From Spirochaetia bacterium (GTDB lineage Bacteria; Spirochaetota; Spirochaetia; CADAEX01), in contig OY759746.1 of NCBI GenBank assembly GCA_963662795.1, positions 3,616,001-3,680,000 on the forward strand: a DNA stretch of 64,000 nucleotides, read 5' to 3'. The notes under the pieces were generated by a model. It was not told the origin of the DNA. It saw only the letters and a list, made by a program, of their open reading frames with translations, and did no database searches. Both the position numbers and the translations under genes were made by a program. This document shows, piece by piece, positions 6,890 through 15,356 of this stretch; the first letter of the stretch is position 1, and every line of letters starts with the position of its first letter.

Positions 6890-7119
6890 TGGAAACTCCT
6901 TTTATTGTTCTTTGGCAGTCACCTTTTAGCAAATACTCGCAAGTGGGGATTATATGACCGTTTTTTGGTGATTTATTCACCATTTATGTTATTTTCTATC
7001 ATATAATAATTATATGTCAAGTAATATTTTATATTCTTTATAAATAAATCAGTTATTTATCATTTTAATATGTTTGAAAACTGAATATTTAAATAATAAA
7101 ATTATGGGAAAGGTGTCGT

Positions 7120-10107
7120 ATGAATGATTTAAAACATTATTGGCTTTTTAAACCCCAAAAATCTAATCTTTCAATATTTCATGATCTAATGCGGTTTAAA
7201 GTTAAAGAAATACTTCTTGTTGCTACGGTATATGATGCCTATATTCTTGAGCGCGAGGGACAGTTATTTGAACAAATTTATGGAGAATATTATCAATTAA
7301 ATATATCAAGTGCCCCAAGGATTACTTCTGTATTTTCAGATATTGATGCACTTGAAATCATAGAAATAGAACAATTCGATCTGGTTATAATTGTTACAGG
7401 AATTGATAAAAATATGCCTCTCGTACTAAGTCAAAAAATAAAGGAAGCAACTCCGGATATACCAATACTACTCTTAATAAATAATAATAACCAAATAATA
7501 TTATACGAAAAAATGGCAAAAGACCTGATTAATTTTGAAAAACTGTTTGTCTGGAACGGTGACAGCAATATCTTTCTTGCAATGATAAAATACATTGAGG
7601 ACTCTATAAATGCACAACAAGATACGTTATCAGGTGATGTCAGAATTATTCTTTTAGTTGAAGATTCTATACGCTATTATTCAAGATATCTTCCAACTCT
7701 TTATAGCGTAATAATGAGGGAAGTACAAAGATTAATCAGTGGTGAGGATATCGATGCGCGATATAAGCTTCTTAAAATGAGAGCCCGTCCAAAAGTTCTT
7801 CTCACCTCAAGTTATGAAAATGCAGTCGAATTATTTGAAAAATACAAAGATTATCTGCTATGTATAATAACTGATGTAAAATACTATATGAATGGGAAAA
7901 TCAATGTTTCAGCTGGAAAATATCTTGTTAAATATGTTCAAAGCAGAGTTAATATTCCGATTCTTTTACAATCATCTGATCCAGTAAATAATAATTTCGC
8001 TAAAGAAAATAAAATTAACTATATTGATAAAAATTCTCAAAATTTATCGAAAGAATTAATTGATTTTTTTAAACAAAATCTTGGATTTGGCAATTTTATT
8101 TTCAGGGATAGCAATGGGAAGAACATTGCCGAAGCAAGATATCTAAAAGAATTCGAATCACTAATTGATAAAATACCAGGTGAATCCATTATTTATCATA
8201 GTAATAGAAATGATTTTTCAACCTGGTTTATGGCAAAAGGAGAGATTAAAAGTGCATTGAAATTGAAAAAAGCGAAAACCGAAGATTTTAATGGACCAGA
8301 AGAAATAAGAAATTTTATAAAAAACACATTGTTTGAACGCTGGCTTGAGAAAAAAAGAGATTCAATATCGAATTTTTCTGAACCAGTGTTAGATGAAACT
8401 TCATACCTCATGAGAATTTCAAATGGCTCTGTAGGAGGAAAAGGAAGAGGTATTGCCTTTACAGAATCACTTCTCCAAAAATCTGAATTTAAAAATATTA
8501 TTAATGGGATAAATATCACCATACCAAAGACTATTATAATCGGTACGGATGAATTTGAATATTTTATGGATAATATTGATATCAGTAATTTAATGCAGAA
8601 TGAAGAGAATATTTTAAAGATAAAGGAACTTTTTTCTAAAATTAAGCTATCCTCTCTATTATCTCAAAGATTGAAGAAAATACTTAATAATACAACTGCT
8701 CCTCTAGCAGTAAGAAGTTCTGGCCTTTTTGAAGATAGTCTTTCGCAACCATTCGCGGGTATATATGATACTTATTATCTACCTAATAATCATCCTGATC
8801 CAAATGAAAGATTACATCAACTTGAGACTGCCGTAAAAATGGTATATGCATCAGTTTTTACACCACTTGCAAAAAGCTATTTTGACTCAGTAAATCACTC
8901 TATTGAAGAAGAAAAAATGGCTGTTATCATTCAAGAACTTGTAGGTCATGCTTATGGTGAATATTTCTATCCACATCTAAGTGGCGTTGCCCAATCATAT
9001 AATTACTATCCTATTTCTCATATGAAATCAGAAGATGGTATTGGGTTAATAGCTATTGGACTAGGTAAAACCGTAGTAGATGGAGAATCTTCCTACAGGT
9101 TTTGTCCCAAATATCCAAAAATGAAAATATTTACAATTAAAGATATGCTTGAAAATTCACAAAGATATTTTTATGCTTTAAATCTTAAAAAAACCAAAAT
9201 CGATTTAATGGAAGGTGTTGATGCAACACTTGATAAAATACCAGTTTCTTTTGCTGAAAAACATGGGAATCTTGATCATTGTGCTTCAGTATATGATGTT
9301 AATTCAAATACTATCAGACCGGGACTTCATATAGAAGGTCCCAGAATTATTGATTTCAGTTATATACTTCAATATAACTATATCCCTCTTTCAAACACTA
9401 TATCAACTGTACTTGATGTTATGAGAAGTGCATTGGGTACACCAGTTGAAATCGAATTTGCCATTGATCTTAAAAAAGACAGTACGGGAAAAAGCTGTTT
9501 TTACATTCTTCAGGTCAAACCTTTGATAAGAACACTCGACACATCATTAAGTGAAGAAATACGTGTTGACAGAAATGATCTTATCCTAAGAACAAAAAAT
9601 GGAATGGGTAATGGAATTATAGAAGGCATTCATGATATTATTTATGTAATCCCCGATAGATTTAATAATCTCAAAACTGCATTTATTGCAAAAGAAATCA
9701 GTCAATTGAACAAAGAGATGAAAAGGATTTCAACAAATTATATACTAATTGGTCCTGGCCGATGGGGATCAAGTGACTCATTTCTTGGAATTCCAGTAGA
9801 TTGGGCATCTATCAGTGAAGCTAAAGTAATCGTTGAAACATCAATAAAAGATTTTCAAGTCGATGCATCACTTGGAAGTCATTTTTTTCATAATATTACA
9901 TCAATGAATATTGGATATTTTACAGTTCCTTTTGGAATTGAAGATTCATTTATTGATTATAATTTCATTGAATCAATTAAGCCTGTAAATGAAACAACAT
10001 ATTTGCGACATATTCATTTACCCACACCTGTTACTGTAATAATGGATGGAAGAAGATCTGTTTCTTTAATTACTAAAAATGGTTGGAAGTTGAAAAAATC
10101 TTTGTAG
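7120..10107 (+). CDS. Receiver-domain plus PEP-synthase/PPDK N-terminal (ATP-grasp) domain protein with a C-terminal His-swivel-like domain; no PEP/pyruvate TIM barrel
   Basis: REC-like RIILLVEDS...IITDVK...IPILLQSS; ATP-grasp GSVGGKGRG, PLAVRSSGLFEDS-FAGIYDT, EIEFA, LQVKP; C-terminal GPGRWGS and SLGSHFFHN. Confidence 0.85.
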   Translation: MNDLKHYWLFKPQKSNLSIFHDLMRFKVKEILLVATVYDAYILEREGQLFEQIYGEYYQLNISSAPRITSVFSDIDALEIIEIEQFDLVIIVTGIDKNMPLVLSQKIKEATPDIPILLLINNNNQIILYEKMAKDLINFEKLFVWNGDSNIFLAMIKYIEDSINAQQDTLSGDVRIILLVEDSIRYYSRYLPTLYSVIMREVQRLISGEDIDARYKLLKMRARPKVLLTSSYENAVELFEKYKDYLLCIITDVKYYMNGKINVSAGKYLVKYVQSRVNIPILLQSSDPVNNNFAKENKINYIDKNSQNLSKELIDFFKQNLGFGNFIFRDSNGKNIAEARYLKEFESLIDKIPGESIIYHSNRNDFSTWFMAKGEIKSALKLKKAKTEDFNGPEEIRNFIKNTLFERWLEKKRDSISNFSEPVLDETSYLMRISNGSVGGKGRGIAFTESLLQKSEFKNIINGINITIPKTIIIGTDEFEYFMDNIDISNLMQNEENILKIKELFSKIKLSSLLSQRLKKILNNTTAPLAVRSSGLFEDSLSQPFAGIYDTYYLPNNHPDPNERLHQLETAVKMVYASVFTPLAKSYFDSVNHSIEEEKMAVIIQELVGHAYGEYFYPHLSGVAQSYNYYPISHMKSEDGIGLIAIGLGKTVVDGESSYRFCPKYPKMKIFTIKDMLENSQRYFYALNLKKTKIDLMEGVDATLDKIPVSFAEKHGNLDHCASVYDVNSNTIRPGLHIEGPRIIDFSYILQYNYIPLSNTISTVLDVMRSALGTPVEIEFAIDLKKDSTGKSCFYILQVKPLIRTLDTSLSEEIRVDRNDLILRTKNGMGNGIIEGIHDIIYVIPDRFNNLKTAFIAKEISQLNKEMKRISTNYILIGPGRWGSSDSFLGIPVDWASISEAKVIVETSIKDFQVDASLGSHFFHNITSMNIGYFTVPFGIEDSFIDYNFIESIKPVNETTYLRHIHLPTPVTVIMDGRRSVSLITKNGWKLKKSL

Positions 10108-10304: not shown

Positions 10305-11328
10305 GCACAGAAATTCCTAGCGCAAATTGGCAATAGCTTCTTTAGGTGTTATGAAGTCAAGAGTTTTTCTTGGCCTCTCATTCAATAGCCTTGCTACTCG
10401 TGATACATCATACTGCGAAAGCTTTCTGAAATCATCTACTTCATCAAGCATATCACGAATCAAGCCATTTGTGTTTTCACATGTTCCCTTTTCCCAGGGA
10501 GATGCCGGATGGCAAAAGTATACATCAATATTAAGATTTTCTTTGAGTTTTTTGAACTCACTGTTCTCTTTACCCTGATCAAGAGTCAGAGATTTTCTTA
10601 GAAGAGGAGATATCTTCTTAAACCTTTTCTCTATTGTTTTTCTTACTGTATTTGCATCATATGTTTTTAACAGATCAAGCTGGATAAACCTAGTTTTACG
10701 TTCAACTATTACGCAGATTGCTGATTTATGGTCCTTTCCAATGAGAAGATCTCCTTCCCAGTGTCCTGGAACTTTCCGTGAGTTAATTTCAGCAGGCCTT
10801 TCGTCTATAAGGGTAATATCTTTTAATTTACCCCGTTTTTCGTCCTTATTTGCACTCTTTCTTTTCTTTCCTTTGAGTCTTAAATCTTTAAGCGCTAGTT
10901 TTTTAAGCTCTCCCCTCATGTGGAAATGGACATAGTTATAAATTGTTTTATCACTCACTTTATCTGAAGGATAATTTATTTCCAGCCATTTGGCAATTTG
11001 CTGTGGGGACCACCGGAGTTGGAGTTTGGGTTTTATAAGCTGCCATGACTTGTTGTCTATTTTTAATTTGGGGCTCTGATTTTTTCTTTGCCTTAAATGC
11101 TCATACTCTGCAATTAAAGGATTGTAATATCCTTCATCAGTACCGCGTTTTATTTCTCTTGTAATACTTGAAGCTCTTCGGCCAAGATTACTTGCTATTT
11201 GTGATAGCTTTAATCTTTTGGTGTAAATCATCTGAAAAATGGCCATTCTTTCATTGAGATTCATTCTTTTGTAACTCACTTAAAACTCCTGTCACAATAT
11301 TAGTTTATTGCGCTAGGAATTTCTGGCC
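10305..11328 (-). mobile_element. IS30-family insertion sequence, apparently intact
   Basis: Perfect 18-bp inverted repeats CAGAAATTCCTAGCGCAA (10308-10325 / 11308-11325); 2-bp GT direct repeats at 10303-10304 and 11329-11330. Confidence 0.9.
10317..11279 (-). CDS. IS30-family DDE transposase
   Basis: GHWEGDL, LTLDQGKE, FCHPASPWEKGTCENTNGLIR, LNERPRKTL. Confidence 0.95.
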   Translation of the reverse strand: MSYKRMNLNERMAIFQMIYTKRLKLSQIASNLGRRASSITREIKRGTDEGYYNPLIAEYEHLRQRKNQSPKLKIDNKSWQLIKPKLQLRWSPQQIAKWLEINYPSDKVSDKTIYNYVHFHMRGELKKLALKDLRLKGKKRKSANKDEKRGKLKDITLIDERPAEINSRKVPGHWEGDLLIGKDHKSAICVIVERKTRFIQLDLLKTYDANTVRKTIEKRFKKISPLLRKSLTLDQGKENSEFKKLKENLNIDVYFCHPASPWEKGTCENTNGLIRDMLDEVDDFRKLSQYDVSRVARLLNERPRKTLDFITPKEAIANLR

Positions 11329-13082: not shown

Positions 13083-14077
13083 TGGGATTACCCCAAAACA
13101 GTAGACACTTGATATACTTAGAAACTAAGGAGTATTAAAGTGCCAAAGAGTCCCTGCACAGAAGAATTTAAAGACGAAATATTGAAGCAAATAAAGAAAG
13201 AAGGACACAGTGTTCTTGAAGTATCAAAAGCAGCAGGAGTAAGTGACGTTACTCTTTATACCTGGCTTAGAAAGGCAGGATGGAAATCTGGTGAGTTCAG
13301 GGATAAGAGGAAATTAATAGAAACAGAAAAAAAATAGAGAATTAAAAGCAGAGATTCGAAAGCTGAAAATGGAGCGTGATATCTTAAAAAAAGCCGCAGC
13401 GTACTTTGCGAAAGAATCCCGGTAAAGTACGCTTTCATTGGGATAACAGGAAAGTGTTTCCAATCCCGCCCTATGTGCAGGATATTTAAAATTAATCCAT
13501 CGGGATTTTACAGATGGTTAAAAACACCAGAATCTCCCAGAATAAAAGAAAATAAAAAACTGACAGAACTAATACGTTTTTATTGGAAAGATAGCGGTCA
13601 AGTATATGGAAGTCCAAATATACATGAAGATCTAAAAGAAGCCGGTTATACCTGTAGTGTTAACAGGGTTGCTCGTTTAATGAAAGAAGCTGGAATAAAA
13701 GGTGCTTACAGGCGGAAACGACATCAAGTTCAATGGGTACCTGGAGAAGTTTATCAAGAAAATACTTTAAGATAGAAAGTTTGCTGTTGATAAACCGAAT
13801 CAAGCCTGGTGTACAGACATCACATATATCCGAACCTATGAAGGCTGGCTTTATCTGGCAGTAGTAATTGATCTATTCAACAGGGGTGTTGTTGGCTGGT
13901 CGATGAAAAGCCATCAGAAAGCAATTATTGTTATGGATACTTTATTTATGGCTGTAAAAAGAAGAAGACCTACAAAGTCTGTTCTTATCCATTCTGATCA
14001 GGGATGCCAATTTACCAGTAAGGATTGGGAAAATTTCTGCGAATCCCATTCTTTAGAAATTAGTATGAGTCGCGAAG
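13083..14077 (+). mobile_element. IS3-family element, degenerate and 3'-truncated
   Basis: Left end TGGGATTACCCC; orfA 13140-13337 broken at an A-run; A7G slippery site near 13386; orfB (YGSP, NRVARLM, WCTDITY, HSDQGCQF) disrupted near 13773 and cut off at the second IS before the last catalytic Glu. Confidence 0.85.
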
Positions 14078-15356
14078 TATAATGAGCCCGGAAATCAAGA
14101 CACAAAAAACGGTATGATTAAGGTGTAAAACCCGCTATACTTTAAGGAGCGGAAAACACAATGAATAAACGACAGAGATTTGACAAGGCATTCAAGGCAA
14201 AAGTAACACAGGATGCTCTTCGCGAGGAACTTACAATTCAGGAAATTGCAAAAAAGTACAACGTTCATCCTAACCAGATCAGCTTATGGAAAAACCAGGC
14301 AATAGAAAGCTTGCCGGAGATTTTTGAAAGACCAAATAAAAAAAGTGAAACAGAGCGAGAAGCCGAGGAAAAATACGATGATGCACTCAAAACGCTTGGC
14401 AAGATGAAGATCGAAAACGAATTTCTAAAAAAAAGTACAAACAACTTTACGGGAGCGATCCCTTCTGATTGAAAGGGCACATGAAAAAATGAGTGTGAAA
14501 AATCAATGTAAAGCTCTCGGCCTGTCAAGGAGTGCAGCTTATTACAGAAAACGATGCTCTCTTGTAGAGAGAGATATTGAGATACTGAAAAAGATAAGAG
14601 AAGTTCTTATCCTCTTGCCTTTTTATGGTTATAGAAAAGTTGCTCTTGAAATTAGAAGCAAAGACTCCTGTGTTTCTCGCGAACAGGTGCGCAGGATAAT
14701 GACAAAAGCAGGACTCAAAGCGATATTCCCTGGAAGGAATATGTCAAAAGCAAGGCATGAACACAAAAAGTATCCATATCTGCTTGCAGGAAAGATTATA
14801 AGATATCCGAATCAGGTTTGGGCGACTGATCTTACATATATCAAAATGCCAAAAGGTCATGTATATCTCATGGCGATTATCGATCTGTATTCAAGAAAGG
14901 TACTTAACTGGATAGTAACTAATACACTTGATGCACAGATATTCGCCAACTGCTTACATGAAACAATTGAAAAGTATGGAGCGCCTGCAATTTTTAATAC
15001 GGATCAGGGATGTCAGTTTACTTCTGAATGCTGGACTGCCGTTCTCCATGAATATGGCATAAGAATAAGCATGGACGGGAAAAATCGCGCAATAGATAAT
15101 ATCTTTGTTGAAAGACTTTGGCGGTCACTTAAGTATGAAGATATTTATATCAAGCGCTATGAGACAGTCCGGGATCTCAAAGAAGGAGTCGCACAATACT
15201 TCAAGTTTTATAACACTGAGCGTTTTCATCAGAATCTCTCTTACAGGACTCCTGATGAAATACATGAATCATTTCAGGCTGTCAGCCTGGCAGAACAGGC
15301 GGCGTGATACACCTTAAACACTCGTCAAAAGTGTGTTGACATAAGGGCGCAGTTTA
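14078..15356 (+). mobile_element. IS3-family element, apparently intact
   Basis: Imperfect terminal IRs TATAATGAGCCC...GACAC and TAAACTGCGCCC...AACAC (reverse complement); orfA/orfB arrangement; no flanking direct repeat. Confidence 0.88.
14161..15307 (+). CDS. IS3 transposase OrfAB, joined by a programmed -1 frameshift (orfA 14161-14472, orfB to 15307)
   Basis: HTH orfA; A8G slippery site 14427-14435; DDE motifs WATDLTY, NTDQGCQF, DNIFVERLWRSLKYE. Confidence 0.9.

Follow-up and report, generated by a model that had tools for sequence, protein, structure and literature searches.

A large family of receiver-containing, dikinase-like proteins linked to glutamate dehydrogenase, exemplified by a gene of a Spirochaetia bacterium

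Gene X is an open reading frame at positions 7120–10107, on the forward strand, of a 64,000-nucleotide stretch of contig OY759746.1 from a Spirochaetia bacterium (the window; coordinates are window positions unless a locus is named). It encodes a 995-residue protein, P0001, in which receiver domains are followed by an ATP-grasp domain and a histidine-containing C-terminal domain. X belongs to a large, unstudied family of receiver-gated dikinase-like enzymes that is linked to glutamate dehydrogenase (GDH). As X and its relatives adjoin GDH genes, X probably controls ammonium assimilation, and does so in a way that has not been described. Judged from its sequence, it is not a phosphoenolpyruvate (PEP) synthase. 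The reading that we prefer, with a confidence somewhat short of an even chance, is that of a phosphohistidine phosphotransferase gated by its receiver, with GDH or its metabolic node as the target. GDH is the main ammonium-assimilating enzyme of many anaerobes, and we know of no dedicated post-translational regulator of a bacterial family-I GDH.

The full-length AlphaFold2 model of X (mean pLDDT 81.7) contains, in order, two (beta-alpha)5 units, a small domain of a beta-hairpin and a helix, the ATP-grasp, a tether (residues 803–813) and the C-terminal domain (C-domain). The low model confidence of linker 803–813 fits a tether. The original prediction, which was made from the sequence alone, had named a degenerate first receiver-like domain (REC1), a second receiver-like domain (REC2) keeping ED, D (in IITDV) and S with an insertion, a small domain marked by FIFR...YHSNRNDFSTW, a complete ATP-grasp of the pyruvate, phosphate dikinase (PPDK) type, and a short C-terminal domain with SLGSHFFH. 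All five were recovered, on the same strand as the gene. REC1 (residues ~27–165; 7198–7614) was recognised from the model, from hhalign and from receiver matches in the Protein Data Bank (PDB). In an alignment of 28 full-length family members its acceptor position is occupied by V, T or M and never by Asp, and the acidic pair is also absent; it is therefore a pseudo-receiver. Its residues 67–123 gave a weak hhalign match to the receiver of a neighbouring regulator, P0004. REC2 (residues ~174–320; 7639–8079) was matched by Foldseek to PleD and PorX; in the model its alpha1 is long, there is an additional helix, and D252 (codon 7873–7875) is followed by an inserted beta-hairpin. Residues E181, D182, D252, S285 and K304 are invariant in all 28 full-length members; in a larger alignment, whose 174 rows were drawn from 171 members with 900 residues or more, they are kept in 166, 158, 162, 165 and 166 of 168 rows, respectively. 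P0001 itself falls below the Pfam threshold for a receiver (PF00072), and 25 of the 28 aligned homologues match at E <= 0.01.

REC2 is followed by a small DUF5752-like domain and a helical linker (residues ~322–430; 8083–8409), in which H360 and W369 are nearly invariant. When the whole of X was scanned, DUF5752 (PF19027) scored 17.2 bits over residues 338–388, under the cut-off of 23. Residues 311–437 scanned alone gave 26.6 bits, over profile positions 133–203 of 208, and 22 of the 28 aligned homologues match PF19027 at E <= 0.01.

The sole confident Pfam domain of X is PPDK_N (PF01326), at residues 437–807 (8428–9540; E 3.6e-35). This ATP-grasp contains G439, G440 and K441, R532, S533 and S534, E777 and E779, and Q798. 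K441, R532, S533, S534, E779 and Q798 are kept in all 174 rows of the larger alignment and E777 in 168, and R532 aligns with the AVRSS arginine of rifampin phosphotransferase (RPH). A Foldseek search of the PDB with the X model returned RPH (5hv1, E 6.9e-13), HpeI (9goj, 1.2e-10), PpsA (2e-7), PleD (2e-7) and PPDK (1e-6). By both sequence and model the ATP-grasp is clearly of the dikinase type, and its nearest structures are RPH, HpeI, PpsA and PPDK. A sequence search of the PDB with X alone returned only the ATP-grasp of RPH (E 0.22). A profile of the 28 homologues returned RPH at E 5e-7 together with PEP synthases, HpeI and receivers (residues 68–132); the alignments of this profile to dikinases were confined to ATP-grasp residues 477–613.

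About 190 residues remain after the ATP-grasp, and neither PEP-utilizers_C nor PEP-utilizers gave a Pfam match in X. The statement that there is no space for the PEP/pyruvate TIM barrel thus held, and the absence of this barrel indicates, as had been proposed, that X is not a PEP synthase. The NCBIfam PEP-synthase models scored 17–46 bits on X against cut-offs of 598–1063, the RPH model 23.3 bits (cut-off 999) and the prodigiosin ligase model, PigC, 51.5 bits (cut-off 1300). Together these models scored 17–52 bits against cut-offs of 598–1350, and X is therefore none of the three enzymes. Relatives of X are annotated as 'PEP/pyruvate-binding domain-containing protein', and some as 'pyruvate, phosphate dikinase', names that would suit an ordinary PEP synthase or PPDK. 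Such an activity is next to impossible, however, given the missing barrel, the low NCBIfam scores and the presence in the same genome of a separate, complete PPDK with the motif GGMTSHAAVVARG.

The C-domain (residues ~815–990; 9562–10089) was delimited from the model, from VIA-align and from conservation. It carries GPGRWG (878–883), E906 and S917-x-G-S-H921-F-F, SLGSHFFH lying at 917–924 and the H921 codon at 9880–9882. In 274 copies of the domain from 271 proteins, G883, E906, S917, G919 and H921 are kept without exception and R881 in 273 copies. H924, the other His of SLGSHFFH, is conserved in only 207 of the 274 copies, and H964 in 238 of 270. The domain therefore has a single invariant histidine, H921, within the motif S-x-G-[ST]-H-F-F, and the residue on whose conservation the original prediction depended is present in every copy. 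No Pfam model exists for this signature domain, and 24 C-domain sequences searched against Pfam gave no PF00391 match at E <= 10. A profile search of PDB sequences gave no match, and in the ESM Atlas the only matches were unnamed clusters of the family itself.

When the C-domain was modelled alone from 24 diverse sequences, the model had a pLDDT of 91.5 and a pTM of 0.89. It was compared by VIA-align with 48,161 representative chains. The highest-ranking chain was the phosphoryl-carrier domain of PPDK (2fm4; Z 6.9, 119 of 128 residues aligned), followed by the C-terminal domain of B. stearothermophilus pyruvate kinase (2e28; Z 6.8), residues 345–518 of maize PPDK (1vbg; Z 6.6), a DRTGG domain (2ioj; Z 6.1), residues 756–867 of RPH (5hv1; Z 6.1) and, at ranks 6–8, Enzyme I and Enzyme I-Ntr (5woy, 5t12 and 2wqd; Z 5.3–5.6). 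Phosphohistidine domains make up seven of these eight best chains; by VIA-align's own caution, a Z below 8 can mean a common arrangement only. The RPH range corresponds to its swivel phosphohistidine domain, given in PMC4844700 as residues 767–865, with His825. Among the weak Foldseek rows obtained with the C-domain model were LD-carboxypeptidase/MccF, aconitase, fumarase beta, chaperonin, S. aureus pyruvate kinase and PPDK. Most of these we take to belong to the 'swivelling beta/beta/alpha' fold class. In the model, a strand and a loop lead to a helix that begins with H921; this is presumably also the position of the catalytic His in phosphohistidine swivel domains. The structure prediction and fold search that had been called for thus gave an ATP-grasp closest to those of known dikinases and a swivel-like C-domain with Z values of 5.3–6.9. 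The model suggests a swivel-like beta/beta/alpha fold, with H921 as a probable carrier His.

Full-length X has at least 7985 relatives (7985 of 8000 scored candidates, E <= 1e-3). Most are 985–1270 residues long, and many have precomputed PF00072 and PF19027 matches beside PF01326. A search with the C-domain alone gave 1581 clusters at 50% identity. Cultured carriers of the family include isolates of Marinifilum, Labilibaculum, Geothrix and Odoribacter. No published characterisation of the family was found in open-access papers and bioRxiv, in line with the earlier statement that none was known for this architecture.

To describe the genes around X, we used the best 79 related loci, with one genome per species. 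A GDH gene lies in the flanks of 39 of these loci and within 1.5 kb of an X gene in 34; where 3 kb or more is available on each side (35 loci), the number with a GDH gene is 17. The GDH-bearing loci comprise 32 of 59 from Bacteroidota, 6 of 9 from Acidobacteriota, 1 of 5 from Spirochaetota, 0 of 3 from Riflebacteria and 0 of 3 others. When neighbouring open reading frames were clustered, GDH was found in 35 loci; next in frequency, with 11 loci for each, came the two subunits of a 2-oxoacid:ferredoxin oxidoreductase. Two copies of X are present in 23 of the 79 loci, typically in the order GDH(-) X1(+) X2(+) GDH(+). X1 was paired with a P0002-type GDH (GDH1) in 25 cases and X2 with a P0127-type GDH (GDH2) in 12, with five discordant pairs, four of which involve a GDH1 located between both X types. 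Many of the loci come from related Bacteroidales and are not independent; the pairing also holds in the present genome, where the two pairs are unlinked.

This 3.93 Mb genome contains exactly two X genes and two GDH genes, arranged as two divergent adjacent pairs 2.4 Mb apart. In the window, X is divergent from gdhA (P0002; 5528–6889, reverse strand; ELFV_dehydrog E 2.7e-86), with a gap of 230 bp; gdhA encodes a family-I GDH and is the proposed target. The paralogue of X, P0126 (locus L002, G000:C1:1180486-1184960), has 1012 residues, 38% identity to X and the motif GTHFFQN. It is divergent from the second GDH gene, P0127 (58% identity to P0002), and leuS lies downstream.

The link to GDH is much stronger than could be seen from the sequence of the window alone. 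In a phylum sample of 151 genomes, 27 of which have the C-domain and 76 a GDH-family gene, a GDH-family gene was present in 26 of the 27 genomes with the C-domain, versus 50 of the 124 without it. In the lone C-domain genome without a GDH match, X lies ~500 bp from a contig end. A GDH-family match was found within ~6 kb on the same contig for 18 of the 34 C-domain genes of this sample, and among these GDH-adjacent cases are receiver-less architectures as well as a distant type of GDH (33–35% identity). In the GTDB family around locus L013 the C-domain was present in 17 of 17 genomes, a count that is not informative on Bacteroides proper. One lead, a reported dependence of GdhA activity in B. 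thetaiotaomicron on one or more trans-acting genes downstream of gdhA, was discarded: BT1971 is a catalase, BT1969 is a malic enzyme, and nothing connects that report to the X family.

Complete receiver-less proteins, consisting of the ATP-grasp plus C-domain core, are about 565–590 residues long, and double forms of 1640 residues were also found. A further subfamily of ~870 residues, in which an unassigned N-terminus of ~290 residues precedes PPDK_N and the C-domain, often adjoins gdhA (loci L088, L089, L090, L092 and L093). The N-terminus of this subfamily opens with ...STGLxGLDxxL..LGDNVVWQ, for which Pfam gives only a weak PAXNEB match (E 0.025) and which we take to resemble a RecA/KaiC-like start. 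At one locus a 588-residue core, followed by an 898-residue sensor-bearing form that ends at the contig edge, lies beside a GDH of the distant type (33% identity). At another, a 1064-residue sensor-bearing form ending in NTP_transf_2 lies beside a GDH of this type (35% identity). Relatives ending in a nucleotidyltransferase (NTase) domain of the Pol-beta type (NTP_transf_2) were seen at L091 (707–3898, reverse strand) and L094 and in proteins P0131 and P0170; they adjoin the 588-residue receiver-less core and the distant GDH, and in some proteins, of 1640 residues, both are fused. GlnE and GlnD belong to the same NTase fold class. As the receiver-less forms are also GDH-linked, the unit travelling with GDH is the ATP-grasp plus C-domain core, and the N-terminal sensors are interchangeable.

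The original prediction named three candidate acceptors: the protein's own receiver, GDH and a metabolite. The receiver-less forms bear on the first of these, the idea that X is a self-contained phosphorelay, in which the ATP-grasp and His domain would serve as an unconventional histidine kinase for D252 or for another response regulator. X does combine a predicted phospho-His carrier and a competent receiver in one chain. Its receivers are N-terminal, however, which is the input position of response regulators, a conventional kinase gene adjoins, and the core occurs, without a receiver but still linked to GDH, in the 565–588-residue, ~870-residue and NTase-fused forms. The existence of receiver-less members of ~565–590 residues argues against phosphorylation of its own receiver as the core function of X, and we consider a phosphorelay very improbable.

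Several results weigh against a phosphohistidine phosphotransferase directed at GDH or its node. A Foldseek search with the C-domain model returned nothing at E <= 1e-3, and the VIA-align match is middling (Z 5.3–6.9), with a DRTGG domain at Z 6.1 in the same list. Nothing significant was obtained by hhalign when the C-domain was compared with the swivel of the genome's own PPDK, or when the 274-sequence C-domain alignment was compared with 18 PPDK and 12 Enzyme I swivel segments; the best local match (E 0.08) pairs VTVIMDGRRSVSLI with the end motif ITIDGTTGEVFE. A genome search with PF00391 found four places, none of them in X. The invariant polar residues of the C-domain (R881, D886, E906, S917 and N925) are more than a passive carrier requires, and with so many of them conserved the domain may have chemistry of its own. 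Flanks without a GDH gene were found in 40 of the 79 related loci, and in 18 of the 35 whose sequence extends 3 kb or more to each side. Finally, 46 X-linked GDHs were compared with 20 unlinked GDHs from genomes without the C-domain, and no Ser, Thr, Tyr or His was specific to the linked enzymes; the only discriminating residues were A45, P205 and V213. A complex prediction of GdhA (21–453) with the X core (432–995), run without controls, gave a score of 0.01 against a mark of 0.32, and is evidence neither way.

We could not establish the C-domain as a sequence homologue of the PEP-utilizers domain, as hhalign, the PDB profile search and Pfam at E <= 10 were all non-significant; a full-length hhalign alignment with PPDK was weak, with only the GGKG motif aligned. 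Since the VIA-align Z values are under the safe level and the sequence tests failed, we describe the domain as swivel-like, with a probable carrier His, and not as a member of PF00391. The original interpretation of X as an ATP-grasp plus His-swivel enzyme is thus partly supported, namely in the dikinase type of the ATP-grasp and in the swivel-like fold with the invariant H921.

If the C-domain is no phosphate carrier, X might sense ATP/AMP or a ligand and bind or allosterically regulate GDH, or it might be a hydrolase or transferase acting through S917, H921 and E906. The middling fold match, the presence of the regulatory DRTGG domain among the chains at Z 6.1 and the lack of sequence similarity to PF00391 are consistent with this, as are the weak Foldseek rows for LD-carboxypeptidase/MccF domains, in which His and Glu are presumably catalytic. 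On the other hand, every residue with which a catalytic dikinase ATP-grasp binds ATP and Mg is invariant, and the order of ATP-grasp, tether and His domain is that of RPH, PpsA and PPDK. We judge a non-carrier C-domain to be distinctly unlikely.

For X as a receiver-gated phosphotransferase, we propose the following pathway. Phosphorylation of D252, for which the kinase may be the neighbouring P0006 (2311–4092), would release the output module. The ATP-grasp would move phosphate from ATP to H921, converting ATP to AMP with the beta-phosphate kept on the His, as modelled on RPH, PpsA and PPDK, and the flexible linker 803–813 would let the His domain bring this phosphate to an acceptor in trans. 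As X has no substrate-binding domain in cis, and the GDH gene is the conserved partner of the core, the acceptor would most likely be GdhA itself or something bound to it. Every X paralogue would serve its own GDH paralogue, and the outcome would be rapid control of ammonium assimilation at the post-translational level, in loose analogy to GlnE or AceK. In its most specific form, X would be the first protein-directed dikinase, a two-component-controlled ATP-grasp/phosphohistidine relay that covalently switches its own GDH paralogue; this version is speculative, and we regard it as rather doubtful.

Alternatively, X might act as a dikinase or ligase on small molecules. A metabolite of the GDH node (2-oxoglutarate, glutamate or NAD(P)) would then be phosphorylated by H921~P or directly by the ATP-grasp, or a signal molecule would be made, and adjacency to GDH would reflect a shared pathway, not a protein target. 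The characterised relatives with this ATP-grasp, RPH (PMC4844700), HpeHI (PMC12167813), PpsA and PPDK, all act on small molecules. The 2-oxoacid:ferredoxin oxidoreductase (11 of 79 loci), a GltD/NuoG-type fusion (6 loci) and the amtB gene of the window feed the same reaction, and the many invariant polar residues of the C-domain could form a small-molecule site. X has, however, no substrate domain comparable to the RIF-binding domain, to HpeH or to the PEP barrel, its minimal relatives consist of ATP-grasp plus C-domain only, and the sensor-rich, paralogue-specific pairing with GDH looks regulatory, not metabolic. We think a small-molecule function unlikely.

Should X act on GDH, it would represent a new output of two-component signalling and a new use of the dikinase mechanism. 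In that case it would also be a testable candidate for the means by which anaerobes of the gut, sediment and groundwater rapidly adjust nitrogen assimilation. If the relay to its own GDH paralogue were correct, a GlnE- or AceK-like layer of GDH control would exist across anaerobic Bacteroidota, Spirochaetota, Acidobacteriota and other phyla, and the sensor-less core, the ~870-residue form and the NTase fusions would be variants of the same GDH switch. If the acceptor were instead a metabolite, X would carry out new dikinase chemistry at the 2-oxoglutarate/glutamate node.

The window also contains a histidine kinase gene (P0006; 2311–4092, forward strand; GAF-like, HisKA and HATPase_c by Pfam), the product of which is the candidate kinase for REC2, and a gene for an NtrC-type sigma-54 response regulator (P0004; 4058–5422, forward strand; Response_reg, Sigma54_activat and HTH_8). 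In the Riflebacteria locus L049 (2737–5324), homologues of P0006 (44% identity) and P0004 (47%) lie between two X genes. This suggests that the kinase and sigma-54 regulator pair travels with X and, with two occurrences only, makes P0006 a reasonable candidate for the REC2 kinase. The sigma-54 promoter pattern matched 32 times in the window, versus 37 expected, and not at all in the intergenic region 6890–7119.

On the other side of X, an IS30-family transposase gene (HTH_38 and rve; 10317–11279, reverse strand) separates it from the ammonium transporter gene amtB (P0005; 11498–12700, reverse strand; Ammonium_transp E 2e-112). After the IS30 gene come an orfA/orfB pair of the IS3 type and an isolated HTH_21 fragment (13473–13775 and 14161–15307, both forward strand). 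X and amtB may have adjoined before these insertion elements arrived. At other loci, the 2-oxoacid:ferredoxin oxidoreductase subunits beside X are POR/POR_N and TPP_enzyme_C (11 of 79 loci, including L009 and L033), and a redox fusion of the Fer2/GltD/NuoG type lies beside X in six loci; these neighbours could supply 2-oxoglutarate or NADPH to GDH. Elsewhere, the genome carries a PPDK-like paralogue, P0280 (L087, G000:C1:3509171-3509797), in addition to the canonical PPDK. Its frame is of 877 residues, of which 823 were read; the match of its nucleotide domain to PPDK_N is only weak, and it has GGYAAHASVVAR as His motif where GGMTSHAAVVAR would be expected.

Among known systems, RPH-Lm (5hv1, 5fbs; PMC4844700) provides the best structural match to the ATP-grasp of X. 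Its His domain is C-terminal to the ATP-grasp, so that a swivel His domain can occupy this position, and its swivel (756–867) is among the top matches of the C-domain (Z 6.1). X differs from RPH in having no rifampin-binding domain, in carrying two N-terminal receivers and a DUF5752-like piece, and in a His domain without detectable sequence similarity to that of RPH. The ATP-grasp of HpeI (9goj) matches that of X with a Foldseek E of 1.2e-10. HpeHI, as described in PMC12167813, is a two-component dikinase whose parts work in trans: the ATP-grasp acts with a separate protein that carries the swivel His and substrate domains, and the substrate is phenolic. In X, by contrast, the His domain is in cis and a substrate domain is lacking.

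PpsA and PPDK share the PPDK_N ATP-grasp with X, and the phosphoryl-carrier domain of PPDK is the top fold match of the C-domain (Z 6.9). Foldseek alignments of 597–703 columns to 2ols and PPDK chains suggest the same succession of ATP-grasp and swivel-like domain. X lacks the TIM barrel, the PF00391 signature (GGxTSHAA) and sequence similarity in the His domain, and has receivers instead. The swivel His domains of Enzyme I and Enzyme I-Ntr also match the C-domain (Z 5.3–5.6). In these enzymes the phosphate on the His domain goes on to a protein (HPr or NPr), a precedent for a protein acceptor; it comes from PEP, however, by way of a TIM-barrel domain, and not from ATP by way of an ATP-grasp. 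The NDP-forming acyl-CoA synthetases (SCS, ACD and ACLY type), which join an ATP-grasp to a phospho-His loop, came into view only because ATP-citrate lyase chains reached Z 4.0–4.1 against the C-domain and PatZ a Foldseek TM of 0.12; the ATP-grasp of X is clearly of the PPDK_N type.

As regards the regulatory part, PleD resembles X in placing a true and a degenerate receiver in tandem ahead of an enzymatic output, and PleD chains matched at a Foldseek E of 2e-7. In X the degenerate receiver comes first, and an ATP-grasp plus His module takes the place of the GGDEF output. GlnE, the glutamine synthetase adenylyltransferase, and AceK, the isocitrate dehydrogenase kinase/phosphatase, are dedicated covalent switches of branch-point enzymes. 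Their folds are unrelated to that of X, and modification of GDH by X is a proposal, so that the likeness to the role suggested here for X towards GDH is one of analogy; at the level of domains, the NTP_transf_2 domain at the C-terminus of some X relatives is of the fold class of GlnE.

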